Assembly: GCA_026395595.1 (NCBI GenBank)
Contig: JAPLYL010000008.1
Coordinates: 56,417-120,416, forward strand
Source: Candidatus Parcubacteria bacterium
Lineage (GTDB): Bacteria; Patescibacteriota; Minisyncoccia; Phycocordibacterales; CAIJYI01
Direction of reading: 5' to 3'
DNA length: 64,000 nucleotides
Position 1 is the stretch's first letter, and each line of letters begins with the position of its first letter. This document shows, piece by piece, positions 11,433-27,522 of this stretch. The position numbers and the translations under genes are program-made. The notes below the pieces were generated by a model. It worked only from the letters and a program-made list of their open reading frames with translations. It did no database searches and was not told where the DNA came from.

Positions 11433-11521
11433 CGGAGAGGTGGGTGAGCACGGTCGAAACCACCACACTGCTAACGTGGCAGGGGGTAAAACCCCTCGAG
11501 GGTTCGAATCCCTCCCTCTCC
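11433..11521 (+). tRNA. tRNA-Ser (anticodon GCU), class II with long variable arm
   Basis: Acceptor GGAGAGG/CCTCTCC with discriminator G. D stem GGT/ACC. Anticodon loop CTGCTAA. Variable arm GGGGGTAAAACCCC. T arm GAGGG-TTCGAAT-CCCTC. Confidence 0.85.
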
Positions 11522-11533
11522 GCAGTAAGTTTT

Positions 11534-11641: not shown

Positions 11642-14600
11642 TTATTCACTGCAAATCACGTCAAGGTCAACGCCCACTGTTTCTTTAAGATAGCTATGTG
11701 CGGCCGCTAAAATCGCTGTTTGATCTGGTGTATGGTTGGTTTTTGATAATCCCGGTTGAACGATAATGATCTCAGCCCTGATTTCCTTGAATCTGCTTAT
11801 CTTTACAAATTTATTCATATCAGCTGATGAACCCAACAAGAAGCGAGTAACTCTTTCTTCGTTTGTGAGACGCTTTTCTCTGTCTAATATATGTTTGCAT
11901 AAATCCTTGAACTTCCATTTCCATTTAGCCGAACGGACCGCTTGCGAAGAAACCTCTACAACATCGCTAATACGTTCACCTGCTGTAGTTTCTGTTGTAA
12001 ATTTACAGTGAATTAAAGCTAATCTAATATGATCATCTTCCTCTTTGAAACAGACTAGATCGGCAGCCTCTCCTGCACCATCGTCATCAAATACTGTTTC
12101 AAAATTTCCAGCAATAAACTGTTGAGCGGCTCGCCATTGTATGGAATCTTCTCTTTGCGCTCCGTTCTTCCAAATAGACTCTTTGCGCAAATCAACACCC
12201 ACCCAATCCCACGCCTCAAATCTTTCTTCTGGGAAAATGAGTTCCTGGGTGTTTTGTGGCTTAATAAGTAGGTTGCCATCAAGTTCAGAAATATCAACGA
12301 ATCGAATCATTGGGGGATAGTTTGAAAAATATTCTTCAATCGGAAGTACTAAATTTCCAACTCGAATAGTAACCTGCTCTTGAGAGTTTTTTGTAACCTT
12401 AAAACCTTCATCACCACCAACAGTTAGTGACAGGTTTAACCAAACATCTTCAGGATCCGTAACTAACCTAAAATAAACTTGGCTGGTCACAATATCAGTT
12501 TTTATAAACTGAAGGTCAAACAATGAGACCGATTTTTCAATTCCTCCTTTTTTTAGAATGACTCTTTCTTCCGATTGCCTAATAATTTCAAGTGGCCATT
12601 CGATACTAAGAACCTGCTTGTCGGGTAACGCGGTTACTTCTTCGGGAATAAGCACGTTTGCAATAATATCAGCAGTATCTATGTTTCCATCTTTAATTTT
12701 TCCACCAACAGATTCACACCATTTGATAAGTTCAGGTATTGAACCTGGATCTCTGGCCCACACACGTCCTTTGTAAGAACAACCTATCGTTACAGGTTCT
12801 CCATTTTCCCAACCCGTGCCACTTAGATTGGATTTAACGGAACCGGCTCGTTCAGAAACGCTGAGCGCTGTTGCCACATCTGAACCGGTATACATTGCGT
12901 ATCGTAGATTGCGTCGGCCGTGTTTTGTCACCCCAACGTTTTGGAAGATTAATCTGTTAATTCGTCCAAGTGCGCGAAATATTATGTCTCCAGAAACGAG
13001 TTTTGTTGCACCAATAGCCCCGGCTATCTTTTCATGATTTGAAGATTTGTCGCTGGAGGAAACGAATAACAGATTGCGAGCTTCATCAAAATGAAAAACG
13101 TGTAAATCCCATATACGATCGCGAAGCTTTCGCGATCTTGTCCATCGAATCGGAGATTCAAGCCTTGTCACAAAATACAAAGTGTTTGATTCTTCATGAA
13201 TCCATACGCGATGCACATTTATACCCCTGGGTATTCCCTCAAAAAACTTTTTTGGCGTAAATGAATTTGCCTCATACATCAATGTACTAAATGTTGGACG
13301 CAACAAATGGTGGGATATTTCTATCTTTTCTTCATCTTCAGAGTTATCAAGAACTTCAGATGCATTCAAAAATGCAATGAGCTCGGAATGAGTCTTTGCC
13401 GCATCGGAACTAAATTCACTTAACAACTGATTCCAGTCAGCATCTTCACTATATAATCGCTCAAGAGCAGATGAAACATCTTGATCGGCAATGTTTGCTA
13501 CTACTGTGGCATCGCCGATTGCTTCACCAGCAGTTCGGGTAAATCTTCCCGTAAATTGAAGTAGAATTGCAAGACTTTTATGTGTATCATGAACAGCCGC
13601 AATTTTCAGTTGAGGTAAATCAAAACCTTCCCCAAGCATGTTTACACAAATAACGATACGACTCTGTCGAGATCTAATTTTTTCAATTGAAGCATCGGTT
13701 TCATCTTCCTCTGAGTGAATAAGAACGGGATTAAGGTCTGGTGCGATTCTATCATAGATAGCGTAGATAGTTCTGGCTCGACCAATACTGGCACATCTTG
13801 CCATCATAAGATGATCTTTTCCAGAAGCGAGGTCTCTTCGAAGTATTTCTACACCTTTTGTGGCAATTGCCTCATCGGCGTTTTCTTGGTCAATCTCATA
13901 TACAGGTTCAAAATTTATATTCTTGAAATACCCATCGTTTTGTGCTGAATGCAATGGATACTCATAAATAACTTTCCCATCAACAAGTTTCCCATCTCTT
14001 CGATAAGGGGTCGCTGTAAACTGCAAAACTCTGTTATCTTTAAACTTTTCTCGAAATGCACCCCACCCAACTGCTCCAACATGATGAGCTTCATCAACTA
14101 TAAGCGTCTTCACATAATCAGCAATAGGAAGAGGTGTATCACCAGAAGAATCGCTTTCCATTACGCTCATCGTCGCGATAACAACATTACATTTATTAAA
14201 AATATCTAAATCTTCTTCCGACTGAAGCCTTTTTTTGATTACTCCAACAATAGGATTTTTTGCTTCAGATGAAAGATTACCAAGGGACCGAAGTAGTCCG
14301 AGAGTAAGAAACTTTTTTGCTGTTTGGTCGCGCAACACTTTTGATGGAACAACCACGAGTAAACTTCCTGTCGAATAGGCAACGAGAGTTGCAAGCATAG
14401 CTTCTGTCTTTCCTGTGCCTGTTGGCATGACAATCGTAGCTGGTTGTTGATACAAACTCCAGTGAGCACCTATTGAATGAAGACTTCCGATTTGTGGTGG
14501 CCTTAATCCTTTTTTAGTTACAGTACCGACAAGGTCTTTTTCTTCGGATTGAAAATTGAATTTTCCATACCAGCTTTCAGTTATGTCTTTCGAAACTTTT

Positions 14601-14938
14601 TCTAAACCACCCTCGTCGACATCATATTTTAGAGCATTTAATTTTCGGTGTGCTATCCACTTCAACGCGTTTCCGAGTTGACCAAAAAGAACTCCATCAA
14701 CATCTCGAGGTAGTTCAAGTTTCTTCTTTTTTGTAATGAGTATTTTTTGACCGTCATCGAGAACATATAGAGTTTCTCTAACTCTTGGAGACGTAAAAAA
14801 TTCCTCAGTCCTGGATATGACTTTATTACCGCCTAAATCTAATACATGAGAAATAATGCCGATAGAATGCTTAATAGGCCCGAATTCTAATGGCGGGAGG
14901 AATAGCATATTCGGATTTTCTGGGTTTGAAGGGCTCAT
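11642..14938 (-). CDS. Large SF2 (ResIII/DEAH-type) helicase fused to an about 500-aa C-terminal domain of unknown function; defense-island-type protein
   Basis: Motif I MPTGTGKT, motif II DEAHH, motif III TATP and motif VI QFTGRFTR are in the N-terminal half. The C-terminal half has no recognisable family apart from a possible degenerate PD-(D/E)xK-like segment (ADLVCF...LALIHCKF). Confidence 0.7.
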   Translation of the reverse strand: MSPSNPENPNMLFLPPLEFGPIKHSIGIISHVLDLGGNKVISRTEEFFTSPRVRETLYVLDDGQKILITKKKKLELPRDVDGVLFGQLGNALKWIAHRKLNALKYDVDEGGLEKVSKDITESWYGKFNFQSEEKDLVGTVTKKGLRPPQIGSLHSIGAHWSLYQQPATIVMPTGTGKTEAMLATLVAYSTGSLLVVVPSKVLRDQTAKKFLTLGLLRSLGNLSSEAKNPIVGVIKKRLQSEEDLDIFNKCNVVIATMSVMESDSSGDTPLPIADYVKTLIVDEAHHVGAVGWGAFREKFKDNRVLQFTATPYRRDGKLVDGKVIYEYPLHSAQNDGYFKNINFEPVYEIDQENADEAIATKGVEILRRDLASGKDHLMMARCASIGRARTIYAIYDRIAPDLNPVLIHSEEDETDASIEKIRSRQSRIVICVNMLGEGFDLPQLKIAAVHDTHKSLAILLQFTGRFTRTAGEAIGDATVVANIADQDVSSALERLYSEDADWNQLLSEFSSDAAKTHSELIAFLNASEVLDNSEDEEKIEISHHLLRPTFSTLMYEANSFTPKKFFEGIPRGINVHRVWIHEESNTLYFVTRLESPIRWTRSRKLRDRIWDLHVFHFDEARNLLFVSSSDKSSNHEKIAGAIGATKLVSGDIIFRALGRINRLIFQNVGVTKHGRRNLRYAMYTGSDVATALSVSERAGSVKSNLSGTGWENGEPVTIGCSYKGRVWARDPGSIPELIKWCESVGGKIKDGNIDTADIIANVLIPEEVTALPDKQVLSIEWPLEIIRQSEERVILKKGGIEKSVSLFDLQFIKTDIVTSQVYFRLVTDPEDVWLNLSLTVGGDEGFKVTKNSQEQVTIRVGNLVLPIEEYFSNYPPMIRFVDISELDGNLLIKPQNTQELIFPEERFEAWDWVGVDLRKESIWKNGAQREDSIQWRAAQQFIAGNFETVFDDDGAGEAADLVCFKEEDDHIRLALIHCKFTTETTAGERISDVVEVSSQAVRSAKWKWKFKDLCKHILDREKRLTNEERVTRFLLGSSADMNKFVKISRFKEIRAEIIIVQPGLSKTNHTPDQTAILAAAHSYLKETVGVDLDVICSE

Positions 14939-15002: not shown

Positions 15003-16328
15003 CTACGCTATTGTCACCACCCCCTTCGTAACTTTAATTTTTGACTTAAAACACCCCATCAATTCTCTCTTCTCTTCGTTCGTCCCTTCTCGGAGAATAT
15101 ATTGGGCGTACGTTTTTGAATCTATTTCCTTGTAGGTTTCTTTTGGGTTTGTCATTCCGAGCACCTTTCTTTGAAATTTGTTCATTCGTTTTAATTCCTC
15201 ATCAAATTTATGTTTGATGCCGAGATTATTGAAGTCTATTTGATCCAGTACTTTTAAAAGTTGTTCAACTAATTCTTCTTCTCGAAGGTACTGACATTTG
15301 CAGTGCCTGTCTTTTGACCTTCCGCATCCATAGTAAATGTATTTTGCGGTCGTTCCATCTTTGAGTACTTTATATTTCTCTTCGGCTGAAATTCCTGATC
15401 CACACAATCCACAGACCATAAGTTTTGTAAAAGCGAATTCTTTGCTTTGTCGATGAATATCATCTCGTTTCAACTGTTCTTGAACTTTATCAAAAAGTTC
15501 TTTTTCAATGATCGGTTCATGTTTTCCGGTATACCAGTTTCCGGACTTTTTCGGGTATTCAAAAACTCCGTAATAAAACGGATTCGATAATGCCCGGTAA
15601 ATATTTCCAAGAGCGACATTATGATTTCCTACCGATTTAAAATTGAGTTCAAATTTTAACCATTGATGAATTTTTCGCCCCGACCATTTTTCATAAGCGA
15701 CTTTTTCATACATTTTTTTAACAATAGGAGCCCTGTCTGGATCTATGGTAACTTGGCATTTTCTATCAATTCTTTTTTCGTTCAAATATCCAAGCGGAGC
15801 GATTCCCGGCCACAGCCCCATTTCAACCCTCGTCCGAAGCCCGCGCTTTACGTTTATTCCGCGATTGTCATTTTCAAGCTTTGCCTGAGATCCAAGAATC
15901 ATCAACAAGAATTTTTCGTTTGGATTATTCCGGAAGCTTTGGCTGAATGTTCGAATCTCTACCAGTTTTCCTGCATCCATCAAGTCTACGATTTTTCCGA
16001 GATCTCCCGCATTACGACTGATACGATCCGGCGCCCATGTCAGAATCCCAGTAAACTTCCCGGCACGTAATTCTTCAACAATCTCATTAAATACAGGCCG
16101 TTGTCCAGTTTCCTTCGCCGAGTGCGATTCGCGCTTCATTGTTACGACCTCTAACCCTTCCCGATCCGCCAGTTGGAGCATTTCCTTAATCTGGCTGTCT
16201 ATTGAAAGCACCTGTCTTTCCTCTGATTCGGTACTCTTTCTCGCATAAAGGCAGTATTTTACCGCCGTTGGAACCTCTATTTTAGCCCTGGTTCCCGCTG
16301 GCATTTGCATTGTTTCCATATGTCTCAT
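15003..16328 (-). CDS. Large serine recombinase (resolvase catalytic domain + recombinase domain + zinc ribbon)
   Basis: YARKSTESEERQ...SIDSQ catalytic Ser region. LTWAPDRISRN. GLWPGIAPLGY recombinase domain. CGLCGSG...YYGCG zinc ribbon. Confidence 0.9.
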   Translation of the reverse strand: MRHMETMQMPAGTRAKIEVPTAVKYCLYARKSTESEERQVLSIDSQIKEMLQLADREGLEVVTMKRESHSAKETGQRPVFNEIVEELRAGKFTGILTWAPDRISRNAGDLGKIVDLMDAGKLVEIRTFSQSFRNNPNEKFLLMILGSQAKLENDNRGINVKRGLRTRVEMGLWPGIAPLGYLNEKRIDRKCQVTIDPDRAPIVKKMYEKVAYEKWSGRKIHQWLKFELNFKSVGNHNVALGNIYRALSNPFYYGVFEYPKKSGNWYTGKHEPIIEKELFDKVQEQLKRDDIHRQSKEFAFTKLMVCGLCGSGISAEEKYKVLKDGTTAKYIYYGCGRSKDRHCKCQYLREEELVEQLLKVLDQIDFNNLGIKHKFDEELKRMNKFQRKVLGMTNPKETYKEIDSKTYAQYILREGTNEEKRELMGCFKSKIKVTKGVVTIA

Positions 16329-16447
16329 TAATGACGCAACCCTCCTAAGGAGTCCAGAGCGACCCGAGTAGGTAACTTTTGCACAAAATATCCGTTTTAC
16401 TTTAATGAAAATTAAGTGTAAACTTATGTTAAGTTAACACTTTTGCT

Positions 16448-16633
16448 ATGACTACATCAAACACGGGAGATATCATTACGCTTAAGGAGGCATGCGAACT
16501 GCTGAACTGTCATCCGAATACCCTGCGAAAATGGGATAACTCCGGTTTCTTGAAAGCGATCCGTTTTGGTGCACGGCGCGACCGGCGGTATCATCGTGCC
16601 GATATTGAGAAATTAATTTCCCAAAAAACATAA
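16448..16633 (+). CDS. Small HTH DNA-binding protein (excisionase/MerR-like HTH_17); candidate RDF or controller
   Basis: ITLKEACELLNCHPNTLRKWDNSG helix-turn-helix. Length is 61 aa. It is the first gene of the MTase operon and lies next to the recombinase. Confidence 0.6.
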   Translation: MTTSNTGDIITLKEACELLNCHPNTLRKWDNSGFLKAIRFGARRDRRYHRADIEKLISQKT

Positions 16634-16635
16634 TT

Positions 16636-17751
16636 ATGAAAGATAAAGTTTCAAACGCCAGCCTTCATGGGGCAAAAAAAGCAAAGAAAGATGAGTTTTA
16701 TACTCAGCTTGTTGATATTGAAAAAGAATTGAAACATTATAAAGATCAGTTTCGTGGCAAGGTGGTATATTGCAACTGTGATGATCCATTTGAAAGTAAT
16801 TTTTTTAAGTATTTTGCCGCTAATTTCAATGCTCTCGGGTTGAAAAAACTTATCGCCACGAGTTACAAGCCATCCCCCATAGCCAATACACAACTGGGAC
16901 TATTTGGCGTAGATAAAGTACTTGCTTCACCAAAAGGACGCCCCAAAGTAACCGCTAACAAATTTATTATCAATGAGGTTAGTGACATAGACGGCGACGG
17001 TGCATTTGATTTACGTGACGTTGCCGAGCAACTTAAGGCTAATAAAAACAATGAGTGGGCCCCATTAGAAGATGAAGGAGATTTTAGAAGTAAAGAAAGC
17101 ATAGAACTGCTAAAGCAGGCTGATATTGTCGTAACTAACCCGCCATTTTCGTTATTTCGGGAATATATTGCACAGATTGTAGAATACGACAAAAAGTTTT
17201 TAATTATCGGCAATATAAATGCGGTTACTTATCAGGAATGTTTTAGACTTGTTCAAAATGATAGAATGTGGCTCGGGGCAAGTATTCATAGCGGTGATCG
17301 TGAATTTCGCGTTCCGAATGATTACCCGCTTGAAGCCGCGGGTTGTAGAGTGGACGAGAGCGGTAATAAATATATCCGCGTCAAAGGTGTCCGTTGGTTT
17401 ACGAATTTGGATTATAAAGAACGTCATGAAGATTTAGTATTGTACAAAAAATACACACCAGAAGAGTATCCTTTATACGACAATTATAGTGCAATTAATG
17501 TTGATAAGACGGCCGATATTCCAATGAGTTACGTTGGGGAGATGGGTGTTCCGATTACATTTCTTGATAAATACAATCCTGATCAATTTAAAATTGTAGG
17601 TGCTCTAATATCTGGCCCACTTGGGCATGAATTGGGAGCAACTAAAACGCAACAGATTAGACCGAACGGAAAGACAACATTGGAATACGGACCAATTATC
17701 AACAAAAAAGGATATTATGGAAGAATTGTTATTAAAAACAAGAAAATATGA
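16636..17751 (+). CDS. N6-adenine DNA methyltransferase (NPPF motif; EcoRI-methylase-family-like)
   Basis: Motif IV VVTNPPF and an upstream CNCDDPFESNFF motif I-like region. The stop overlaps the next gene's start (ATGA). Confidence 0.65.
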   Translation: MKDKVSNASLHGAKKAKKDEFYTQLVDIEKELKHYKDQFRGKVVYCNCDDPFESNFFKYFAANFNALGLKKLIATSYKPSPIANTQLGLFGVDKVLASPKGRPKVTANKFIINEVSDIDGDGAFDLRDVAEQLKANKNNEWAPLEDEGDFRSKESIELLKQADIVVTNPPFSLFREYIAQIVEYDKKFLIIGNINAVTYQECFRLVQNDRMWLGASIHSGDREFRVPNDYPLEAAGCRVDESGNKYIRVKGVRWFTNLDYKERHEDLVLYKKYTPEEYPLYDNYSAINVDKTADIPMSYVGEMGVPITFLDKYNPDQFKIVGALISGPLGHELGATKTQQIRPNGKTTLEYGPIINKKGYYGRIVIKNKKI

Positions 17752-18854
17752 AAATTGAACTAAACAGAATTAAAATACGCGAAGTAATAGAAGAATACAA
17801 AGACAGCGCCGAGGAGGGTGTTGTGGCTTACGGTGGCAAACTTGATGTTCGTCCAAAATATCAGCGTGAGTTCGTCTACAAAGACAAGCAGCGAGATGCG
17901 GTTCTTGATACTATCAAAAAAGGATTCCCACTCAACGTCTTGTACTGGATGGTGCGTGAAGATGGCGGTTATGAACTACTCGATGGACAACAGCGAACGA
18001 TTAGCATTGGTCAGTATATCAGCGGTGACTTTTCGCTAGATGACCGTTATTTTCACAATCTCACAAAAGAAGAACAAGAGCAGATATTGAATTACGAATT
18101 GATGATTTATTTCTGCGAAGGTACAGATAAAGAAAGACTGGGCTGGTTCAAAACTATCAATATCGCGGGTGAAAAATTAACAGATCAGGAATTACGCAAC
18201 GCCGTTTACACTGGCCCGTGGCTTTCTGACGCAAAACTAAAATTCAGTAAATCAAATTGCGCCGGATACCTTTTGGCAAATGACGGTGGCACATTACTCA
18301 CCGGTTCGCCGATCCGGCAAGAATATCTGGAAACCGCACTTTCTTGGATCAATGATGACGAAGTGGCGGGCTATATGGCAAAACACCAGCACGACAAAAA
18401 CGCAAATGAATTGTGGGAGTATTTCCAAAATGTCATTGCTTGGGTACGAAAAACATTCACAAACTATCGCAAAGAAATGGCTCATGTAAACTGGGGCGAA
18501 TTGTACAACGAATTTAAAGATAAGAAGTTGGATTCAAAAAAGTTGGAAGCTGAAATCTTTAAATTGATGCAAGACGAGGACGTAACGAAAAAATCCGGTA
18601 TCTATCCTTATGTTCTCACAAAGCAAGAAAAACATCTTTCCATACGTGCATTCAACGATAAAATGAAACGCGAAGCATACGAGCGACAGGAAGGAATTTG
18701 TCCGCATTGCAAAGGAGAGAATAAGAAAAAGAAATGGGAAATTGAAGAAATGGAAGCCGATCACGTCACCCCATGGCACGAAGGTGGTAAAACGACCGCG
18801 GAAAATTGTCAGATGTTGTGTAAAGAAGATAATCGACGGAAATCGGGGAAATAA
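17748..18854 (+). CDS. DUF262 (ParB/Srx-like DGQQR NTPase) fused to C-terminal HNH endonuclease; GmrSD/BrxU-like
   Basis: DGQQRT motif in the N-terminal domain. C-terminal CPHCKG...ADHVTPWHEGG...NCQMLCKEDNRRK is the HNH signature. Translationally coupled to the MTase. Confidence 0.75.
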   Translation: MKIELNRIKIREVIEEYKDSAEEGVVAYGGKLDVRPKYQREFVYKDKQRDAVLDTIKKGFPLNVLYWMVREDGGYELLDGQQRTISIGQYISGDFSLDDRYFHNLTKEEQEQILNYELMIYFCEGTDKERLGWFKTINIAGEKLTDQELRNAVYTGPWLSDAKLKFSKSNCAGYLLANDGGTLLTGSPIRQEYLETALSWINDDEVAGYMAKHQHDKNANELWEYFQNVIAWVRKTFTNYRKEMAHVNWGELYNEFKDKKLDSKKLEAEIFKLMQDEDVTKKSGIYPYVLTKQEKHLSIRAFNDKMKREAYERQEGICPHCKGENKKKKWEIEEMEADHVTPWHEGGKTTAENCQMLCKEDNRRKSGK

Positions 18855-18857
18855 GCC

Positions 18858-21059
18858 ATGATTAATAAAATTCTAAAAATCGAAGGACTAGGAAAGTTTA
18901 AGAAGTTTTCCAATACAGGAAACGACGATTTGAAATTCTTGAAATACACTGTTATTTTCGGTTACAACACATACGGAAAAAGTACTCTGACAACCATTTT
19001 TAGATCTCTTAAAGATTCCGATCAAAAACGCCTGAATGGAAAGAAAAGTTTTGGATTCATTGGAAATCTTGCCATCGATATATTGGATGAGACTGGTCAA
19101 CACCTAACACTTGCAAACGGCAAATGGAGCAATCCTAATATAGCTATTTTTGATAATTATTTCACCCATAGCTCTGTTTTTGTTGGAGATGAAATAGGTC
19201 ACAAACACAAGTCATCTTTGTATGGAGTTTTTGTCGGGGAGGATATCAGACAACAAATTTCTAAGTTAAAAGAACTGCGGGGTGAGCAAGATGCCTTAGA
19301 AAAAGAGCGTGACAAAATTAAGTCTGAATACACAAAAGGGTATCTTGGAACTTTCGATGCCTTTCTTGGAAAGGAAGCGGTTGATGGAGTTGAAGAGAAA
19401 AAAGAAACTAAAAAGAAAGAAATTCAAAGGATAAAGAACTCCGTTTCGCTTAAACAACTTATTGCGAGCTCTCCATTTGCAAGTAAGTTCGAGAAATTTT
19501 CGGCATCAATGCAAAAAACACTTGATACCTCAGCTGAAACGAATATCGAAAATCATGTAAAATCTCATTGGAAAGATGTTACAGCCTCCAAAAATTTTCT
19601 GGCCGCAGGCGTTGATTTATTGAAAGACGGTACGAACACTTGTGTTTTCTGTGGGCAGGGCCTCACGCCCGTGGTAAATCTTATCAAAGACTTCAAAAAT
19701 GTTTTTGGGGCTACCTACAAAGAAACACAGCAGGAAATAGAAAAAATTGGCGAGGCGTTCTTGCGATTTGATGTAGAAGCTGAAATGGCAAAATTCACTC
19801 CGCTCGGGGTTATCTGCGAAGAAATATACAACAAGGATGTTTTGTTAAAAAATAAAAATATCCTCGACGAAGATGTTCGCAAAAAACTTAAGAATTTAAA
19901 TTACGCAATTGATGTTACTTCAGCTATAAGCCCCTTCAAATCTTTTGTTGCGGAAATAGTAAAATTACATCCAACTTTTGAGATGCTTAAGACTCAGGAG
20001 TTTTCTACTATAAAACAAACCGCATTGGAAAACGAACTGAAACAATTAGAACTCGCACAATATCGCCACGGGGAGGAAGGTGTCGCTCTTGCTCAAAAAT
20101 TTACCAAGGCCATTATAGCCGTTGAAACCAAAAAAACAGAAATCGATACTCTACGAAAAAAGATTGACGAAGCAACCAAAGATACTATTGGAAAAAACCA
20201 GAAGCAAGTTAATACAATACTTACGGATGTATTAAAGGCGGATTTCACAATCCAAAAAATGAGCGGTCAATCAAATTTAACCAGAGCTAATGCTCACTCT
20301 ATAGATTATGAATTCGTTATAAACGAAAATATCGTTCCCATATCCAATAAACACTTACAGACTGATGAGGAGCCATTAGACAAACCATATTTCGGAAATA
20401 CACTTAGCGATAGTGATAGAAGATTGCTCGCACTCGCGTTCTTCATTGCCAGCTTGCAAACGGATAGTAATCTGAAAGACAAGATAATTGTTTTAGATGA
20501 TCCATTTTCTAGCTTTGATTCAAATAGAAAAGATTATTTGGCGAGAATGATTATTGATATCCAGAACGAGAAAAAGGAACGACCGGGACAAATAATCGTT
20601 ATGACACACGACGATGGGTTTCTTGGTCGACTCCAATCAAAATTACCGTCATCTGACACGAAAGTACTTAAGATTAAAAACTCCGTTGCCGATGGCTCAG
20701 TTTTAGACAAATGTGATGTTGATGAAATTATCGAGGAAGAATATTTCAAAAACATAAAGCACATCAAAGAGGCAGCAGATAAAACAAGGGATGTAGATAG
20801 TGCCCTGAAACGGGTTCGTCCATGTCTTGAGCGAGTTTTACGACATAAGTACTATTTTTGTCTTGATAAAGAAACACTTGAGAGCGGAAGCATAACCTCT
20901 TATCTTGAAAAAATTGATAAAAAGTGCGTGATAAAAGATGAAATACTGAAAAGTGGTTGGCACGAACACATGCACGATGAACACGAGATTATGAAATTAT
21001 TGGAGCCGGAAAAAGTTCAAAAATTGAAGGATTTTCTTGTTCTCCTTGAAAAAATATAG
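18858..21059 (+). CDS. Rad50/SMC-like ABC ATPase with coiled-coil insert carrying a CxxC zinc-hook motif; PrrC/RloC-like or Septu PtuA-like candidate
   Basis: Walker A GYNTYGKST near the N-terminus. About 450-aa coiled-coil region containing CVFCGQGLT (compare Rad50 hook CPVCGR). Walker B IIVLDDPFSSFD, H-loop VMTHD, and an about 170-aa C-terminal tail (RPCLERVLRH...WHEHMHDEH). Confidence 0.65.
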   Translation: MINKILKIEGLGKFKKFSNTGNDDLKFLKYTVIFGYNTYGKSTLTTIFRSLKDSDQKRLNGKKSFGFIGNLAIDILDETGQHLTLANGKWSNPNIAIFDNYFTHSSVFVGDEIGHKHKSSLYGVFVGEDIRQQISKLKELRGEQDALEKERDKIKSEYTKGYLGTFDAFLGKEAVDGVEEKKETKKKEIQRIKNSVSLKQLIASSPFASKFEKFSASMQKTLDTSAETNIENHVKSHWKDVTASKNFLAAGVDLLKDGTNTCVFCGQGLTPVVNLIKDFKNVFGATYKETQQEIEKIGEAFLRFDVEAEMAKFTPLGVICEEIYNKDVLLKNKNILDEDVRKKLKNLNYAIDVTSAISPFKSFVAEIVKLHPTFEMLKTQEFSTIKQTALENELKQLELAQYRHGEEGVALAQKFTKAIIAVETKKTEIDTLRKKIDEATKDTIGKNQKQVNTILTDVLKADFTIQKMSGQSNLTRANAHSIDYEFVINENIVPISNKHLQTDEEPLDKPYFGNTLSDSDRRLLALAFFIASLQTDSNLKDKIIVLDDPFSSFDSNRKDYLARMIIDIQNEKKERPGQIIVMTHDDGFLGRLQSKLPSSDTKVLKIKNSVADGSVLDKCDVDEIIEEEYFKNIKHIKEAADKTRDVDSALKRVRPCLERVLRHKYYFCLDKETLESGSITSYLEKIDKKCVIKDEILKSGWHEHMHDEHEIMKLLEPEKVQKLKDFLVLLEKI

Positions 21060-21175: not shown

Positions 21176-24040
21176 TTAGGGACACGCCAAACATGCTTTT
21201 GCAAGATCTTCAAGCTCTTTGAAGATTGTTTCCGCTTCTACTCGCTCAGGAGTTACCCCTTCAGGTAAGGAGTTTATAAATATTGGAGAATCCAACAACT
21301 GATCCTCAAGCATTACTGCAATTCCAACATCGGTTCTTTTCCTAATAAGTCTTCCGAAGCCCTGCTTAAAAAGCATTACGGCGAGTGGCTGATAGTAGTT
21401 TTTGAAACCATCTAACCTCTTGTTGTCCAATTCCTTACAACGAGCCTGTATAATGGGAAGGTTTGGGTTTCTATAGGGCGTTTTGTAGATAAAAAGAGAT
21501 CTTAGAGAATTACCTGGGACATCAACCCCCTGCCATAAAGTTTCTGTACCGATCAACACTGAATTTGTGTCACTGGAAAAATCTCTGATTACAGAAGTAC
21601 AAGATTGCCCCCTCGATTGTTTCAGTAGCCAAAGATTCTTTTTTGATAATGGACGAACCAGTTTTTCATAAATCTTGTTTACCTGGTCAAAACTCGTACA
21701 GAGAATAAGTGCCCCTCCGTTACTTGCGATAATCGCTTTTTCTAAAAAATCAACACTTTCGTTAAAATGACGGTCGCCCTTCATTGTCTTGAACGAAATG
21801 CCTTTCGGAAGGAAAAATTTGGCTTGTTTATCGTAATCAAATGAAGAGGAAAAGATGTACCCTTTTACGTTTCCTTTTTCTATAAGTCCCAACCCGCAGC
21901 GACTCGAAAAAAAGTTAAATTTTTTATCAATTGTTAGTGTCGCGGATGTCAGTACCACAGAGGAATAATTTTGATAGACTTTTTCGTTCAATTCTTTAGC
22001 GACAGACAGTAAAGATCCTTTTATCTCAACGCCCGAGTTGGTTCTTTCTAAGTATTTAATATATGCGGGGCTGGTGTTTATAAAAACAATGACTGTATCA
22101 ATTATTTGTTTTACCGTACGTATACGGATAGTTAATATTTTTTGTTGTTGCTCGTTCTTTGTTTCTTTTGCAAAAACTTCCATTATACTTTGGATACTTG
22201 CGAGACGGTCTCGAATCTGAATCAAAATACCCTGAAGAGCAGTTAATCCATCCTTGTTCATTTCTGAAAAAAGACTGTACTGAGAGTAACCTTTGTCGTT
22301 CGGTTTTGAAACAAGTTTTGGCGTAATCTCGTCAAACAAAGAGGTAATATCAAGATTAAGATTGGATTCTACCTCAAAAAAAGAATCCGACAAAGACGAC
22401 AACCTATTCTCATTTTTTTGTTTTGCGATATTTTCTATTATGTTAGCAACGCCTTTCCTTTTTCCTTTTCCAAACAAATGTTGCTCAAGTAAAATAAAAC
22501 GATCTTTAGAGAGAATTTGTTCCCATGCGGAAGTGGCATCTTCTTCAAGGTGATGAGCTTCGTCAAATACTATGTATTTTGCTTCTCCAGGAAATACGGT
22601 GTGTGAAAAACTAACGGCATGTTTTTGTGCGGAATTTTCTTCATCAACAAAATCGTTTTCTTTTTCTTCGGCTGGAACAATCCCAGACAACATAATCGCG
22701 TGATTCACAACCACAAGGTCTGCGTCTCTTGCGCGAAGTTTTGCTTTTGCGAGAAAACACTTTCCCTCACCAAACAAATCGCAAACTCCTTGTGTGCAAA
22801 GCTCGTCAGTATTGCATACATCGTGTTCGATCTTCTTTGGCATTCGTTCTGTAAGCCAATAAGGTAGTTCTCCCCAGTCTCCACGTGTAGTCTCTAAAAC
22901 CCAAGAAGAAAGAAGAATTCCTGATAGCGGGCGAGTAAACCTAATTCCATCTCTTTTGAATTCATATAAAGAACGCTGTGTACCTTCTGCTATTATTTCC
23001 TCTATGAATTCACTAAATTTTGATAAACAAACATAATTCTTTTTTCCCTTCAAGACGGCAACGTGTAATTCTTTTCCCATTAGTTCACATAGGTGGGGAA
23101 TTTCTTTAAATGCGAGCTGGTCTTGCAGAGCTTTTGTATGGGTTGAAATTATAACTGGTATATTATTTTCAAGCGCAAAAAGGACGGAAGGGGCTAAATA
23201 TGCTTTTGATTTTCCCGTTCCTGTACCGGCTTCAATAACCGCGTGTTTTTTATTATTAAAGGAGAATGCAATTGCCGCAGCCATTTTCTTTTGTTCTGGA
23301 CGAGCCTCCGAATAGTTGCCGGATTTATCAATCGCTGGATCAAAATATTTTTCTACATCCTCTATTTTTATTTCCTTGTTGGCCTTAAACCCAAGAGTGT
23401 TTTGCCCCACGGGTTTTCTATATGACTGAAACGGTTCGACTAAATGTGAAATATCTATGATATCCTCTGACCTAGCAGGTAGAAAATCTTTCCACCACCA
23501 ATTTACTCGTTCAGACAAGTAACGAAGCGCTGATCTGTGCTTTAACGGTTTTCTTACATATAGTGCTTGTAGGTTTTTTATAATCTCAAATTCACTTTCG
23601 CAATCCTGAAGAGCGCGATGCCTGACCGATTCTAATTTGAAATATTCTGAAAGTGCTGTAGTCGAATGCCCAAATGGATTTGTCGGCAAGATAAAAAATG
23701 CGAATTCAAGAGAATCTTGCTTGTCATCGAATTTAAGACCCTCTCGTTCCAGTATCGGAAAATCGAAAGAAAATCCATTATGAGAAACTACGGTATATCC
23801 TTTAATAAATTCTCTTGTTTGTTTAATTACTTCTTCAATTGTTGGTGCGTTGCAAACATCTTTTTCTGTAATTCCAGTAATTCGTTTTATTGTTTCTGGG
23901 ATTTCATCAGAATAACGCACAAAAGTAGACCATCTTTTTAAAACAGTATTTCCTGAAACCAAAATAGCACCGACTTCAAGGACAGAGGAAAATTCACGAT
24001 CTAAACCCGTTGTTTCAATATCCAGTATGACGTATTTCAT
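21176..24040 (-). CDS. dinG: DinG-family (Rad3-like) helicase with N-terminal DEDD 3'-5' exonuclease domain
   Basis: N-terminal ILDIETTGLD exonuclease motif I. Helicase motif I AGTGTGKS and motif II FDEAHH. Length is 954 aa. Confidence 0.8.
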   Translation of the reverse strand: MKYVILDIETTGLDREFSSVLEVGAILVSGNTVLKRWSTFVRYSDEIPETIKRITGITEKDVCNAPTIEEVIKQTREFIKGYTVVSHNGFSFDFPILEREGLKFDDKQDSLEFAFFILPTNPFGHSTTALSEYFKLESVRHRALQDCESEFEIIKNLQALYVRKPLKHRSALRYLSERVNWWWKDFLPARSEDIIDISHLVEPFQSYRKPVGQNTLGFKANKEIKIEDVEKYFDPAIDKSGNYSEARPEQKKMAAAIAFSFNNKKHAVIEAGTGTGKSKAYLAPSVLFALENNIPVIISTHTKALQDQLAFKEIPHLCELMGKELHVAVLKGKKNYVCLSKFSEFIEEIIAEGTQRSLYEFKRDGIRFTRPLSGILLSSWVLETTRGDWGELPYWLTERMPKKIEHDVCNTDELCTQGVCDLFGEGKCFLAKAKLRARDADLVVVNHAIMLSGIVPAEEKENDFVDEENSAQKHAVSFSHTVFPGEAKYIVFDEAHHLEEDATSAWEQILSKDRFILLEQHLFGKGKRKGVANIIENIAKQKNENRLSSLSDSFFEVESNLNLDITSLFDEITPKLVSKPNDKGYSQYSLFSEMNKDGLTALQGILIQIRDRLASIQSIMEVFAKETKNEQQQKILTIRIRTVKQIIDTVIVFINTSPAYIKYLERTNSGVEIKGSLLSVAKELNEKVYQNYSSVVLTSATLTIDKKFNFFSSRCGLGLIEKGNVKGYIFSSSFDYDKQAKFFLPKGISFKTMKGDRHFNESVDFLEKAIIASNGGALILCTSFDQVNKIYEKLVRPLSKKNLWLLKQSRGQSCTSVIRDFSSDTNSVLIGTETLWQGVDVPGNSLRSLFIYKTPYRNPNLPIIQARCKELDNKRLDGFKNYYQPLAVMLFKQGFGRLIRKRTDVGIAVMLEDQLLDSPIFINSLPEGVTPERVEAETIFKELEDLAKACLACP

Positions 24041-24426: not shown

Positions 24427-25173
24427 ATGCCCTTCAAAGAGTACATAAGTAATCACCCCGATCTTGTTCGGGAACGAATTCATAATTTTTTAGGATACGG
24501 AAATCTCTTAGGCGACATTTGGTTCGTCGGAATGGAAGAAGGAGGCAATGAGACGCCAGAAATTCTGCTGTCTCGTTTTCTCGCCACCTCGCAAGGGAAA
24601 ATGTTCGACATTTATGATGATATGCGCGAACATCCGGATCATATGCGTTGGTTCAAAGAAAATGCACCAACGCAGGCGACATATCGAAAACTTATTTATC
24701 TTTTACTGTTCCTCCGTTTGGGAAAAGAGCCTTCCCTCGGAGACATTCGCGAGTATCAAATAAAGAGCTTCGGAAGAAAATCGTCCGATCACGCGGTTTT
24801 GGAACTCATGCCGTTACCGTCAAAAACAATAGACAAAAAAGACTGGAGATATGGTGATCTCGGTATCGAAGAACTTTCTTCTCGGAAAAAGTATCTTACC
24901 GAATTCAAATCCGACCGTGTGGAACTTTTCCGATCGCTCGTTGAAGATCACAAGCCGAAGCTTGTAATCTTTTATTCTCTTGGATATATCAAAGACTGGC
25001 AGAAAATTGCTGAAACGCCTTTTACGGAAATAATTCCGAAAAAACTATTAATCGCGCAAAGAGACGGAACCACCTTCGTTGTGGTTCCGCACTCTGTCGC
25101 GAGAGGACACTCAGATGAATCATGGAGATCTATCGTCGAAGGCATTATATCTGCTCATCCGTTTTCTTCATAG
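24427..25173 (+). CDS. Hypothetical protein (248 aa), no recognisable domain
   Basis: Clean ORF preceded by the structured leader. No motifs recognised. Confidence 0.5.
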   Translation: MPFKEYISNHPDLVRERIHNFLGYGNLLGDIWFVGMEEGGNETPEILLSRFLATSQGKMFDIYDDMREHPDHMRWFKENAPTQATYRKLIYLLLFLRLGKEPSLGDIREYQIKSFGRKSSDHAVLELMPLPSKTIDKKDWRYGDLGIEELSSRKKYLTEFKSDRVELFRSLVEDHKPKLVIFYSLGYIKDWQKIAETPFTEIIPKKLLIAQRDGTTFVVVPHSVARGHSDESWRSIVEGIISAHPFSS

Positions 25174-25540
25174 GTACCGTATAAATATTTAACTTGGTAA
25201 TCGGAGGAACGAACTCGCTATCGGGCGTTTTCTGATTCTTTGTTTGGTAGTCCGGATGGCATCTCTCGAGTTGGAATTTCACGGCTTGCATATTGTTCTG
25301 CTGGATATTTTGGATAAGATGCGTATGAGCAAGATCATTCACGAAGCTTTTTCCAAGGTTGATAGCATTATCCGCCTTAAGAGCAAATGGCCGTTCCTCT
25401 TTCCATGTGTAGAAAGTTTCTCGACTAATACCGGCTCGTTTGCAGGAATACCATATATTTCCCGAATCGCGGAGAAATTCAAGTACTTTTTCTTGCATTC
25501 TATGAGTCCTCTCTTTCACGTCTGATGATTTTTTCGCCAT
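25145..25540 (-). CDS. Phage terminase-small-subunit-like HTH protein
   Basis: SCKRAGISRETFYTWKEE resembles TerS/insertion-element HTH. It is adjacent to the ParB-MTase as in phage packaging modules. The true start may be the internal Met (MQEKV...) abutting the MTase stop. Confidence 0.5.
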   Translation of the reverse strand: MAKKSSDVKERTHRMQEKVLEFLRDSGNIWYSCKRAGISRETFYTWKEERPFALKADNAINLGKSFVNDLAHTHLIQNIQQNNMQAVKFQLERCHPDYQTKNQKTPDSEFVPPITKLNIYTVPMKKTDEQI

Positions 25541-26288
25541 GTCCGGTAAGTTTTTTCCAGCGTTCCACTATCGTCGCGCAATATTCAGGTTCGATTTCGA
25601 CCATAACGCAACGTCTCTTCGTCTGCTCGCACGCAATAAGCGTTGAGCCACTACCGCCGAAGGGATCGTATACGCAATCGTTCACACTGGTGCTGTTAAG
25701 AATGATTTTCCTCAAAATCCCGATCGGTTTCATCGTCGGATGAAGTTTGCTTCGGGACGGTTTCGGAGCGAAGATGACTGATTTGTCTTTTCCTCTTTCG
25801 AATTTATGCGTTCCTTTCCAACCGTAAAGGATGAGTTCGTGCTGGGGAAGGTAATCGAGCCGTCCGATGATTGCTCGGTCTTTTACCCAAATAATCAGCT
25901 GGGATACTTTCACGCCAAGGTCTACGAACGCTTGCCTGAGGGAGAAAATCATCTTGTCACAATTGAAGACGTAAATGCTATTCTTTTTTGAGAGGTGCGG
26001 AAGAATATTTTTCAGCCATCCTTTCGTGAAATCGGCATACTCCTCGTCGCTCATAAGCCCATCGTTTTCAATATCTTTGTCGACAGAAATTTCTTGCATT
26101 CCTCGCTTGCTCGCAACGTAATCAATCGCATACGGCGGATCTGTCAGAATCAAATCGATTGTACCTTTCAGAATCTCGCGGAGAGGAACCGTCTTTGCCT
26201 CTCCGCAAACGAGAATGTGATCGCCGAGAGTGATAATGTTGCCTTTCTTAATCGAGTTGCTTCGCTTTGTGTCCGGTGAATTTTTCAT
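25500..26288 (-). CDS. DNA methyltransferase (N6/N4 beta-class, DPPY motif)
   Basis: ILTDPPY motif IV precedes C-terminal FDPFGGSGSTLIACE motif I, which is the beta-class order. Length is 262 aa. Confidence 0.85.
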   Translation of the reverse strand: MKNSPDTKRSNSIKKGNIITLGDHILVCGEAKTVPLREILKGTIDLILTDPPYAIDYVASKRGMQEISVDKDIENDGLMSDEEYADFTKGWLKNILPHLSKKNSIYVFNCDKMIFSLRQAFVDLGVKVSQLIIWVKDRAIIGRLDYLPQHELILYGWKGTHKFERGKDKSVIFAPKPSRSKLHPTMKPIGILRKIILNSTSVNDCVYDPFGGSGSTLIACEQTKRRCVMVEIEPEYCATIVERWKKLTGHGEKIIRREREDS

Positions 26289-27522
26289 ATCGGTTGATGA
26301 TGAGCTGGCAAAAGATAGGGCTTTTTTCGACCAAGAATGCCCGGCGTTTCATTTGTTCGCAAGCGAGAAGTGTGGAACCGCTTCCTCCGAATAGATCAAG
26401 TACGTTATCGCCGATTTTTGTGCATCGGTTTAGAGGTCGCTCATGAAGAGAAAGCGGTTTCTGTGTCGGATGTTCGTACTCGTCACCCGAAATGCGTTTC
26501 GCGAGCCAGATGTCGATCATGTCGGTGATATCGTCGATTGTTGCGTTTCCGATTCCAATGTCTTTGTTAAGAATCTCCGCGAATTTCGTGTGCTTTGGCG
26601 AAAGATAGGGTTTTCCGGTCGTTCCGTAAACGCAGGGTTCATAAAGCTTAGAGAACGCTACCTGAGGTGTCACATTGATTCCGTTTTTAACCCAGAGTGC
26701 CGTGCGTTTGTATCCGATACCTAGTTCTTCGAAAAGCATTTGAAGCATGCCGACATATTTTTGATCGCAGTACCAGAAGTGGTGGGCGTTTTCCGCACTT
26801 ACGGAAAGGGCGCTTGTCATCGCTTTGCGGAGAAACTCGCGATATTCGACATCGGTCTTCTTGTCGTCGACATCTCCGCCGTAATTCGCCTTTCCGCCAA
26901 GACCTTTATTGTAGTCGAGCGAGATATTGTAAGGCGGATCGGAATAAGCCATATCAATTTTGTGATTTCCGACAAGACGTTTCGCGACCGCTTTGTCCGT
27001 ACTATCTCCGCAGATAAGGAAGTGATCGCCGAGAGAGAAGAGATTTCCTTCTTTGATGTCCGTTTTCTTCGCTTCTTCCATTTCCTTCTTCTCATCGAAA
27101 TCGTCATCTTCAATTTCGAGAACATCGTCCCAAATGTTCGAAAGGTCGGTATCGTCAAAGCCGATGTCGAGAAGAAATTCAGTATCGAACGCTTTCAGTA
27201 GGTCGTAATCCCACGAGCCGGTGTTCTTGTTGCTTCGGAGAAGGTACTCTTCACATTCCTTCGTCGTGAGCTTCCGATTCGGAACGCGGACGTCGATTTC
27301 TTCTTTTCCGCGACCGAGTGCTTGCATAATTCGGAGGCGGGCGTGTCCCGCCAAAATGCCGTTGTCTGTATTGATGGCCGGGATTTCGACCAAGTTATAT
27401 CTATTAATACTTGTTTCGAGGTCTTTCCGCTCTTTATCGGAAATCTTCCTCGGATTCTTGGCGTGCGGGATGAGATCATCGATCTTTCTCGTTTCCGTAC
27501 TCCAGACTAATGCTTTTTGCAT
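26248..27522 (-). CDS. ParB-like nuclease domain fused to DNA methyltransferase (phage-type orphan MTase)
   Basis: N-terminal ParB/Srx-like region (NPRKISDKE...EIPAIN...GHARL), then SDPPYNI and LDLFGGSGSTLLACE. Confidence 0.85.
   Translation of the reverse strand: MQKALVWSTETRKIDDLIPHAKNPRKISDKERKDLETSINRYNLVEIPAINTDNGILAGHARLRIMQALGRGKEEIDVRVPNRKLTTKECEEYLLRSNKNTGSWDYDLLKAFDTEFLLDIGFDDTDLSNIWDDVLEIEDDDFDEKKEMEEAKKTDIKEGNLFSLGDHFLICGDSTDKAVAKRLVGNHKIDMAYSDPPYNISLDYNKGLGGKANYGGDVDDKKTDVEYREFLRKAMTSALSVSAENAHHFWYCDQKYVGMLQMLFEELGIGYKRTALWVKNGINVTPQVAFSKLYEPCVYGTTGKPYLSPKHTKFAEILNKDIGIGNATIDDITDMIDIWLAKRISGDEYEHPTQKPLSLHERPLNRCTKIGDNVLDLFGGSGSTLLACEQMKRRAFLVEKSPIFCQLIINRYEKFTGHKAKQLD

Follow-up and report, generated by a model that had tools for sequence, protein, structure and literature searches.

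A type II restriction-modification operon with a predicted RloC-family anticodon nuclease gene in a tRNA-adjacent island of a Candidatus Parcubacteria bacterium

The 64,000-nt stretch of DNA analysed here (the window) comes from a Candidatus Parcubacteria bacterium (contig JAPLYL010000008.1). Four tightly packed open reading frames run in the same direction on its + strand, at the coordinates at which a preliminary description of this DNA had read them. The features of the locus are as follows.

11434..11523, + strand: tRNA-Ser(GCT), found with ARAGORN, the probable integration landmark of the island
15003..16328, - strand: large serine recombinase, for mobility of the island, divergent from the operon
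16414..16442, no strand: 13-nt inverted repeat AAGTGTAAACTTA/TAAGTTAACACTT, found by repeat search, a candidate operator
16448-16633, + strand: HTH protein (ORF1), 61 aa
16636-17751, + strand: adenine methyltransferase (MTase; ORF2), 371 aa
17748-18854, + strand: DUF262/HNH protein, the restriction endonuclease (REase; ORF3), 368 aa
18858-21059, + strand: ABC ATPase (ORF4), 733 aa

The HTH and MTase genes are separated by a gap of 2 nt, and the MTase and REase genes overlap by 4 nt in an ATGA that spans the MTase stop codon. This overlap and the common direction of the four genes agree with the preliminary description, but the gap between the REase and ATPase genes, given there as 4 nt, measures 3 nt. 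The locus is probably an island next to a tRNA gene, with a serine recombinase and, in one operon, two defence modules of known kinds. The recombinase and tRNA genes bear out the earlier placement of the operon as restriction-modification (RM)-linked defence within a recombinase-bearing island next to a tRNA.

The recombinase matches the Pfam families Resolvase (5e-21), Recombinase (1.6e-15), and Zn_ribbon_recom (6e-8). Its homologues lie beside related cargo in other contigs, with 59% identity in L091 and L099 and 53% identity in the viral contig L175. Related islands also adjoin tRNA genes: a tRNA-Ser(GGA) lies directly 5' of the related HTH-RM-RloC island of L091, and a tRNA-Gln in L099 and a tRNA-Glu in L089 adjoin related serine-recombinase islands. 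Over 29 nt, the 3' end of the window's tRNA-Ser (11496-11524) is 97% identical to L091; within the window there is no second copy of this 3' end. L091 has in common with the window its HTH (74%), its recombinase (59%), its RloC (65%), and the tRNA-Ser site, and carries a type III RM instead.

ORF1 is a DNA-binding protein of the HTH_17/MerR-excisionase type (Pfam HTH_17, 8.7e-12), which also matches the TIGR01764 excisionase family (1.2e-8) and a PHROG excisionase/regulator. Upstream of its gene, the arms of the inverted repeat (16414-16426 and 16430-16442) are 92% complementary across a 3-nt spacer, and the repeat is placed 6 nt 5' of the HTH start. The surrounding sequence is partly kept 5' of the L091 HTH, which leads a different operon, one of type III RM and RloC. 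A controller (C) protein is a small HTH_3-family protein that heads an RM operon and binds an upstream palindromic C-box. In at least 18 of 74 loci with the REase only, an ORF of 55-82 aa lies at the same 2-nt junction 5' of the MTase, and all 10 of the leader proteins sampled from REase-only loci are HTH_3 proteins (C-protein family) of 65-72 aa at this junction. ORF1 fills the controller slot by its position, size, junction, and upstream inverted repeat, suggesting a putative controller that would act through a candidate operator. In having a small HTH leader coupled to M and R genes downstream of an inverted repeat, and genuine HTH_3 C-protein-type leaders in its sister loci, the operon resembles the C-regulated type II RM systems of the C.PvuII/C.AhdI type. 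However, its own leader is of the HTH_17/MerR-excisionase type rather than HTH_3, and its genes are ordered C-M-R, ending with the REase.

The matches of ORF1 to excisionase families, together with its co-occurrence with a serine recombinase, run counter to a controller reading.

ORF2 is an EcoRI-family N6-adenine MTase. It matches Pfam PF13651 (EcoRI_methylase) over its full length (5.6e-147) and the PADLOC MTase_II profile (1.7e-124), and has its NPPF motif at residues 168-171 (nt 17137-17148). ORF3 contains the Pfam domains GmrSD_N (4.5e-17) and HNH (PF01844, 1.5e-10), with the DGQQR of the ParB-like DUF262 domain at residues 79-83 (nt 17982-17996) and the HNH motif CPHC...DHVTP...CKEDN at residues 318-362 (nt 18699-18833). 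It aligns end to end with the PADLOC REase_II profile PDLC03418 ("Type II restriction enzyme"; 2.1e-135; residues 1-368 on profile positions 1-372 of 372). More than 8000 homologues of ORF3 were found, and the best 120 of these are all at least 81% identical. Of the 87 other loci in which 1.2 kb or more of flank is available, 85 have an MTase homologue 5' of the REase homologue, namely 60 of 62 metagenome loci and 25 of 25 viral ones. The pair is also annotated on plasmids of many phyla, where the partner is an 'adenine-specific methyltransferase EcoRI family protein'. ORF2 and ORF3 are thus separate, adjacent MTase and type II REase genes conserved as a pair, a self-contained and very widespread type II RM pair by its predicted activity. 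Together, ORF1-3 form a conventional type II RM module with a putative controller ahead of M and R, the first module of the locus. The MTase would methylate adenine at target sites in host DNA, the DUF262/HNH endonuclease would cleave incoming unmethylated DNA, and the small HTH, probably via the upstream inverted repeat, would time and tune expression of both.

With an N-terminal DUF262/ParB-like domain that contains DGQQR and is fused to a His-Me finger nuclease, ORF3 resembles GmrSD, BrxU, and SspE, and had been likened to these modification-sensing type IV nucleases. Those proteins, however, have a DUF1524 domain, act on modified DNA, and lack a cognate protecting MTase. ORF3 has no Pfam match to DUF1524; its nuclease domain is a canonical PF01844 HNH, and its match to the type II REase profile is full-length. 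In addition, a protecting MTase strictly accompanies it, the opposite of what is expected for a modification-dependent enzyme. A type IV assignment is thus not supported. The PADLOC profiles NsnA, PD-T4-2, and HEC-05 match ORF3 in its N-domain only.

ORF4, the second module, is an RloC-family anticodon nuclease (ACNase) whose tRNase activity is predicted. It matches Pfam AAA_13 (1.2e-21), its 733 residues fall inside the 658-897 range of RloC, and its homologues bear the JGI product name 'wobble nucleotide-excising tRNase'. Conservation of its motifs was scored over 41 sequences, down to 22% identity.

18960..18986, + strand: Walker A GYNTYGKST (K41); G35, N37, G40, K41, S42, and T43 invariant in the 41 sequences
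19641..19658, + strand: zinc hook CVFCGQ, aa 262-267 (C262, C265); C262, F264, C265, and Q267 invariant to 22% identity
20403..20615, + strand: ABC signature LSDSDRR, Walker B/D-loop LDDPFSSFD, and linchpin His THDD, from conserved residues
20715..21056, + strand: predicted all-helical C-terminal anticodon-nuclease domain, R654-x3-E658-x47-H706, from the motif and the AF2 model

In the AF2 model, the head resembles that of Rad50/SMC proteins. The zinc hook sits in a loop between helices 241-254 and 270-283, inside a helical insert of residues ~115-458. As in RloC, this coiled-coil insert separates the N- and C-lobe strands of the ATPase and has a central CxxC hook, for which zinc binding is predicted. 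Around the signature, Walker B, and linchpin motifs, S517, D520, D547, D548, P549, S552, D554, and H584 are invariant among the 41 sequences. The C-terminal tail, which the preliminary description gave as about 170 aa rich in Arg and His, does contain RPCLER (aa 654-659) and WHEHMHD (aa 701-707), but the distinct domain in the AF2 model is ~114 aa (residues 620-733) and consists of helices only (621-732). Within it, R654, E658, and Y665 do not vary across the 41 sequences, and conservation of H706 is 90% or more. The catalytic triad of RloC has been defined as Arg-X3-Glu-X36-52-His (PMC2610378), and the x47 spacing of ORF4 falls inside this definition. Residues K44, C291, and D572 of Geobacillus kaustophilus RloC (GkaRloC) correspond to the Walker A, zinc hook, and Walker B region of ORF4 (PMC3458546), and the ORF4 motifs fall in the same order as the GkaRloC residues defined by mutation (K44, C291, D572, R692, E696, and H737). 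An exhaustive search with the ORF4 C-domain by itself recovered RloC-sized proteins only. Because the nuclease domain has no detectable sequence similarity to PrrC, its assignment as an ACNase rests on motif, spacing, and family name; these features point to an ACNase, putatively of the HEPN type. Every other motif named in the preliminary description (NPPF, DGQQR, HNH, and CVFCGQ) was likewise located in ORF2-ORF4, and Pfam upholds its domain calls with matches to HTH_17, EcoRI_methylase, GmrSD_N plus HNH, and AAA_13.

RloC, known from GkaRloC and from Acinetobacter baylyi ACIAD0152, is a wobble-nucleotide-excising anticodon nuclease. ORF4 has the same architecture and size class, with the Walker A Lys, a CxxC hook in a coiled-coil insert, the Walker B Asp, the linchpin His, and the C-terminal triad in colinear order; the Pfam family, the Rad50-like head, and the product name of homologues are also those of RloC. 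Thus, the hook-bearing ATPase, which had been compared with RloC and PrrC, goes beyond mere similarity: it has the predicted nuclease tail and is in fact a member of the RloC family. It differs from the Acinetobacter-type relatives recovered (L075, L080), to which it is ~22-27% identical, in its host, a candidate-phyla-radiation bacterium represented by a Parcubacteria metagenome-assembled genome, and in the predicted status of its activity. Its partner is a type II RM, not type I or III. The locus brings candidate-phyla-radiation bacteria, and with its relatives type II, IIS, and IIG RM partners, into the RloC picture.

The proposed action of ORF4 is that of the RloC family. The Rad50-like ABC head and the zinc-hook coiled coil would hold the putatively HEPN-type C-terminal tRNase inactive; once switched on, the enzyme would cut or excise the wobble position of tRNA and arrest translation. 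RloC is triggered by linear DNA together with its ATPase (PMC3458546, PMC3874168), and DNA ends would be abundant while the neighbouring REase (or a phage nuclease) cuts DNA. This would be abortive infection, a second line after restriction, and the earlier suggestion of a second line behind the RM system is accepted logic for the family.

The preliminary description proposed that the four genes form an uncharacterised composite system, in which the DUF262/HNH protein, as a type IV-like or Septu-like nuclease, would work with the hook ATPase. Neighbourhood data have already largely refuted this proposal, which is now most improbable. Essentially all of the 107 loci with the M+R pair lack RloC, which lies directly downstream in 0 of 86. 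Conversely, of 80 genome loci that encode ORF4 relatives, 79 lack the window's RM, the relatives pairing with other RM types instead, and a search for the MTase, DUF262-HNH, and ATPase triad as a neighbourhood recovered it in 3 other contigs only (L085, L094, and L005). The end-to-end type II REase match of ORF3 also argues against it. Nor does the gene order define a novel system: the locus is essentially RM type II plus RloC (PADLOC PDC-S06), and this is its proper annotation.

Septu, which pairs the PtuA ABC ATPase with the PtuB HNH protein, was considered separately and is not supported. No PADLOC match to PtuA or PtuB was found at E<=0.01, similarity to PtuA is that of a generic ABC head only, and the ATPase and HNH genes are not a conserved pair. 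ORF4 also differs from Septu in combining its ATPase with a nuclease domain and a zinc hook, and the HNH protein here goes together with the MTase instead of the ATPase.

Relatives of ORF4 (41-77% identity) lie within or just after RM operons in 14 of 16 evaluable contexts, and these operons are of type I, IIS, IIG/ISP, and III in addition to the type II of the window. The subclade is thus RM-embedded near-obligately, irrespective of RM type, in contrast to the textbook view of rloC as rarely RM-linked (8/73 for RloC at large; PMC2610378).

The RM linkage recalls PrrC, the tRNA-Lys anticodon nuclease of EcoprrI, in which an ABC-ATPase and HEPN ACNase gene lies inside a type Ic RM operon as a second defence line. 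PrrC itself has ~340-420 aa, no coiled-coil/zinc-hook insert, a PrrC box, and invariable type Ic linkage. ORF4 is not a PrrC: it has 733 aa, the insert and hook, and a type II neighbour, and the PADLOC PrrC profile aligns to its ATPase residues 537-617 only (E 1.1e-5). PrrC-like control is a separate matter: contact with an RM protein would silence RloC, and a phage anti-restriction protein would free it, with no sensing of DNA ends. Such silencing is kept as a candidate because the near-obligate embedding of the subclade is closer to the habit of PrrC than to that of RloC as described, with its rare linkage. Several relatives, moreover, sit exactly in the slot of PrrC, with the order HsdS>RloC>HsdR (L011, L030) or HsdM>RloC>HsdS (L009, L012, L051), and the RM-RloC junctions of relatives are translationally coupled, with anything between an overlap of 4 nt and a gap of 7 nt. 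Nevertheless, RloCs that are 65-77% identical to one another go with structurally unrelated RM enzymes (type I, ISP, III, AlwI-like IIS, and DUF262-HNH), and a specific protein-protein silencing interface is therefore hard to reconcile with these partners. The elements of an internal switch, namely the hook and the ATPase motifs, are all invariant, the RM of A. baylyi has neither a silencing nor an activating effect on its RloC (PMC3874168), and L202 and L205 have no RM neighbour at all. PrrC-like silencing is accordingly a rather doubtful explanation.

These two stand-alone relatives would suit a looser relationship, in which RloC is a mobile single-gene cassette that enters a defence island at the 3' end of an operon, borrowing its promoter and acting independently of the RM. 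The edges of the cassette are precise: DNA homology sets in 0-12 nt 5' of the ATG and goes no further than the RloC stop codon. In addition, rloC has been noted as the sole cargo of mobile elements (PMC3458546), and distant ORF4 relatives mostly have no RM link, 19 of 67 having a type I or N6_N4 component somewhere in the flanks retrieved. All but two of the close contexts, however, have specifically an RM gene next to RloC, which at times lies between two RM subunits (Mod>RloC>Res in L081; also L009 and L011). Such non-random insertion next to RM genes argues for selection on the RM-RloC linkage, and co-location without coupling is unlikely.

A further reading, which is possible and is put forward tentatively, is that the subclade acts as a generic 'restriction relay', which joins any RM type because its trigger would be a product common to all RM systems, the double-strand ends of restricted invader DNA. 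The Rad50-like head would sense these ends, and ongoing or overwhelmed restriction would lead to tRNA cleavage and translation arrest without specific contact to an RM protein. The genetic signature of the relay would be the exact single-ORF edges of the cassette and a common HTH/recombinase scaffold with swappable RM cargo. One RloC scaffold with varied RM cargo is a natural experiment that could discriminate between triggers of ACNases, loss of RM function or restriction-made DNA ends.

A palindrome-avoidance test for the recognition site of the RM singled out no one palindrome: TCGA has an O/E of 0.42 in the window, and of 0.78 vs 0.99 in the pooled loci, but GGCC and ACGT are low too.

The four genes at the centre of the locus are co-directional and closely packed, as the preliminary description had it, with trivial corrections only: a 2-nt gap separates the HTH gene from the methyltransferase (MTase) gene, a 4-nt ATGA overlap joins the latter to the restriction endonuclease (REase) gene, and a 3-nt gap precedes the ATPase gene. 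A large serine recombinase and a tRNA-Ser flank the operon.

11434-11523, tRNA-Ser
15003-16328, minus strand, large serine recombinase
16414-16442, 13-nt inverted repeat upstream of the HTH gene
16448-16633, plus strand, ORF1, HTH protein, 61 aa
16636-17751, plus strand, ORF2, MTase, 371 aa
17748-18854, plus strand, ORF3, DUF262/HNH protein, 368 aa
18858-21059, plus strand, ORF4, ABC ATPase, 733 aa

Pfam assigns the four ORFs to HTH_17, EcoRI_methylase (5.6e-147), GmrSD_N plus HNH, and AAA_13, respectively, and all the motifs originally read by eye are present (NPPF, DGQQR, the HNH residues CPHC...DHVTP...CKEDN, Walker A, CVFCGQ, RPCLER, and WHEHMHD). The proposal that the genes make up a new defence system is not supported. 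ORFs 1 to 3 are predicted to constitute a type II restriction-modification (RM) system with a controller-like HTH, and ORF4 a RloC anticodon nuclease, carried together on a mobile island of a CPR bacterium.

Current defence-finder surveys list RloC by name (PMC12322248). Its definition calls for 658-897 aa, ABC ATPase motifs resembling those of PrrC, a CxxC zinc hook on a coiled-coil insert, and a C-terminal Arg-X3-Glu-X36-52-His triad (PMC2610378). Alignments of 19 and 41 ORF4 homologues, down to 22% identity, reveal invariant residues in Walker A (G35, N37, G40, K41, S42, T43), the hook (C262, F264, C265, Q267), the signature (S517, D520), and Walker B/D-loop (D547, D548, P549), together with the linchpin H584 and the nuclease residues R654, E658, and Y665. 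With a conservation of 90% or more, H706 completes the motif R-x3-E-x47-H together with R654 and E658. The motif residues are colinear with K44, C291, D572, R692, E696, and H737 of the Geobacillus kaustophilus protein, GkaRloC, which have been validated by mutation (PMC2610378, PMC3458546). PADLOC names ORF4 PDC-S06 (5.6e-56), and several homologues are called 'wobble nucleotide-excising tRNase' by JGI. An AF2 model (mean pLDDT 86) contains a split ABC head, a helical insert of ~340 aa with the CxxC in its central loop, and an all-helical C-terminal domain (residues 621-732). Together, these lines of evidence identify ORF4 as a predicted RloC-family anticodon nuclease.

Among solved structures, PDB sequence searches found no PrrC or RloC relative; ORF4 gave generic Rad50/RecF ATPase matches only, with RAD50 the top profile match (3e-7). 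Neither PADLOC profiles nor exhaustive phmmer detected sequence similarity between the ORF4 nuclease domain and PrrC, the RM-embedded anticodon nuclease. With the C-terminal 114 aa as query, phmmer returned 10 proteins, RloC-sized except for one of 474 aa and one repetitive protein of 1279 aa; none is PrrC-sized. Tests of family membership rejected PrrC for ORF4 and Septu for the locus.

The neighbours of ORF4 relatives show whether MTase, DUF262-HNH protein, and ATPase form a conserved unit. Among 80 genome loci that encode an ORF4 relative, an ORF3 homologue lies upstream of it only in L005, a 1.8-kb fragment. Other comparison loci (L numbers; identity to ORF4 in brackets) are arranged as follows.

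L085 (77%) and L094 (66%): M/R pair as in the window, then RloC
L081 (72%): Mod, RloC, Res (type III)
L204 (72%): HTH_3, Ymh-HEPN, Mod, Res, RloC
L091 (65%): HTH_17, Mod, Res, RloC
L089 (71%): type ISP/IIG fusion, then RloC
L203 (68%): type ISP fragment, then RloC
L083 (68%): HTH_3, Dam, AlwI-like REase, MTase, RloC (type IIS)
L093 (58%): hsdM-S-R, then RloC
L003, L008, and L009 (66%, 43%, and 41%): RloC flanked by type I components

Counting the window and L005, 14 of the 16 evaluable close contexts are RM contexts, the exceptions being L202 and L205. Relatives of 30-33% identity occupy PrrC's own position, in the order HsdS, RloC, HsdR (L011, L030) or HsdM, RloC, HsdS (L012, L051). Type I or N6_N4 components accompany 19/67 of the more distant relatives, a lower bound since only fetched flanks were counted, which agrees with the published finding that rloC is 'rarely linked' to RM (8/73; PMC2610378). 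The three genes are thus not conserved as a unit; what is conserved is the RM embedding of ORF4's RloC subclade. RM-operon and mobile-island contexts of PrrC/RloC-family ABC-HEPN proteins have already been described (PMC3710099).

Other genes are found in these neighbourhoods. Members of two uncharacterised families, DUF2130 (L004, L008, L015, L089, L202) and DUF2779 (L085, L093), lie immediately beside RloC relatives, sometimes inside the RM operon, as in L008 (HsdM...DUF2130, RloC, HsdS), and may be accessory partners. Some RloC-bearing RM operons contain a second HEPN RNase, of the Ymh family in L204 (247-999), and in L047 (616-3816) an MTase-S-subunit-AbiU2 HEPN fusion is directly upstream of RloC. 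A 2509-aa polymorphic-toxin-like protein (SpvB, FG-GAP, PT-HINT, C-terminal HNH; L026, 2386-9912) directly precedes a 31%-identical RloC relative.

Gene identities, motif conservation, and modular architecture are direct observations at the window locus; its mode of action is proposed by analogy. GkaRloC excises the wobble nucleotide, and hook mutations uncouple the RloC switch (PMC2610378, PMC3874168, PMC3458546). The RloC of A. baylyi responds to inducers of double-strand breaks independently of its RM (PMC3874168). In the window, the RM would restrict unmethylated DNA, and RloC would stop translation once DNA ends indicate that restriction is under way or failing, or that a phage is attacking. 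The near-obligate RM embedding of the subclade would also suit a PrrC-like arrangement, in which a specific contact with the RM silences RloC; however, RloCs that closely resemble each other go with RM enzymes of unrelated structure, and silencing of this kind seems rather improbable. Because of that pairing, a generic signal, DNA ends, is the favoured trigger.

ORF2 and ORF3 appear to form a conventional type II RM pair of a very widespread kind. ORF2 matches PADLOC MTase_II (1.7e-124), and residues 1-368 of ORF3 match the 372-position REase_II profile PDLC03418 (2.1e-135), a full-length match which places the ORF3 family already among restriction-enzyme reference sets. Databases contain more than 8000 relatives of ORF3, the best 120 of which are 81-95% identical and spread over several phyla. 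Loci encoding ORF3 relatives were fetched from metagenomes (80) and viruses (27); where the upstream flank reaches at least 1.2 kb, an EcoRI-family MTase homologue lies upstream of the ORF3 relative in 60/62 and 25/25 of them, respectively. Where downstream flank is available (86 loci), an RloC relative never follows directly, and the window's HTH was found in none of the fetched loci. On plasmids of Firmicutes, Actinobacteria, Proteobacteria, and Bacteroidetes, a 'DUF262 domain-containing protein' adjoins an 'adenine-specific methyltransferase EcoRI family protein'.

GmrSD and BrxU are modification-dependent enzymes, whereas ORF3 is strictly paired with a protecting MTase and is therefore read as a classical REase. 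GmrSD-type IV membership was rejected: ORF3 is without DUF1524, has a canonical HNH, and keeps its strict MTase partner. A PDB sequence search with ORF3 yielded the bare HNH motif only, and its AF2 model (28 homologues) has a mean pLDDT of 47, since all usable homologues are at least 81% identical. Literature searches turned up nothing beyond survey listings, whether on PDC-S06 or on DUF262+HNH proteins as characterised type II REases. When L095-L201 are compared with window 16636-18854, conservation is higher for the REase than for its cognate MTase (77-88% vs 48-77% identity in the 80 metagenomic loci), the opposite of the usual RM pattern. In a palindrome-avoidance analysis aimed at the recognition site of the RM, TCGA is strongly depleted in the 64-kb window (110 observed vs 261 expected, O/E 0.42, z -9.3); its O/E is 0.78 in pooled REase-bearing loci and 0.99 in controls. 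Since GGCC and ACGT are low too, the depletion is not specific and no tie to the window's RM is claimed.

At least 18 of 74 REase-only loci have a leader ORF of 55-82 aa that stops 2-4 nt short of the MTase start, and all 10 leader ORFs sampled are HTH_3 Cro/C1-type, the family to which RM controller (C) proteins belong. The window HTH, of the HTH_17/MerR-excisionase type, is non-homologous to these and has the same 2-nt junction. In L091, a 74% identical HTH leads a different RM operon, with partly conserved sequence upstream. The window HTH is read as a putative controller-like regulator. A role solely as excision factor for the adjoining serine recombinase is less favoured: L099 has the recombinase (59% identity) and no homologue of this HTH, although a 103-aa unannotated ORF occupies its leader slot, and sister loci fill the slot with C-protein-type HTH_3 genes.

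The window and L091 share the tRNA-Ser 3' end (97% over 29 nt), the HTH (74%), the serine recombinase (59%), and RloC (65%), and between HTH and RloC L091 carries a type III pair unrelated to the window's RM. Nucleotide homology of the RloC gene (window 18846-21059) to L081, L089, L091, and L094 extends from 0-12 nt ahead of the ATG to the stop codon or just short of it, precise limits which indicate that the gene moves as a single-ORF cassette between unrelated RM operons. Related recombinase islands adjoin tRNA-Gln (L099) and tRNA-Glu (L089). Together, the sharing with L091, the cassette limits, and the tRNA neighbours mark these serine-recombinase islands next to tRNAs as one family, in which the RM cargo can be swapped and RloC rides along. 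No attR copy of the tRNA-Ser 3' end was found in the window. The near-obligate embedding of the subclade, whatever the RM type, and the natural cargo-swap series are of moderate interest and could serve to study the triggering of RM-linked anticodon nucleases.

Between tRNA-Ser and recombinase lies a 1098-aa protein (11642-14938, minus strand) with a ResIII/DEAD helicase core (residues ~144-470), ~600 residues without a family match, and a weak PADLOC PbeA match (4e-14); the island may here carry a separate gene for defence or for a helicase-nuclease. Convergent with RloC is a 954-aa DnaQ-exonuclease/DinG-helicase fusion (21176-24040, minus strand; NCBIfam DinG 2e-139, below the curated cutoff; PADLOC type IV-A CRISPR-associated DinG 2e-99), probably a housekeeping gene marking the island end. 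A phage-like remnant (24427-27522) comprises three minus-strand genes: a small-terminase-like ORF of 131 aa and two DNA MTases, one of 262 aa and one of 424 aa fused to ParB. Beyond its recombinase, L091 carries a terminase-like gene and an N6_N4 MTase of 424 aa comparable to that in the window. At the remnant, orf248 (24427-25173) belongs to no family and has a 54% homologue on viral contig L175 beside the recombinase and the same RM. Finally, ARAGORN predicts a tRNA-Ile with anticodon TAT at 55859-55933, an uncommon bacterial route for decoding AUA.
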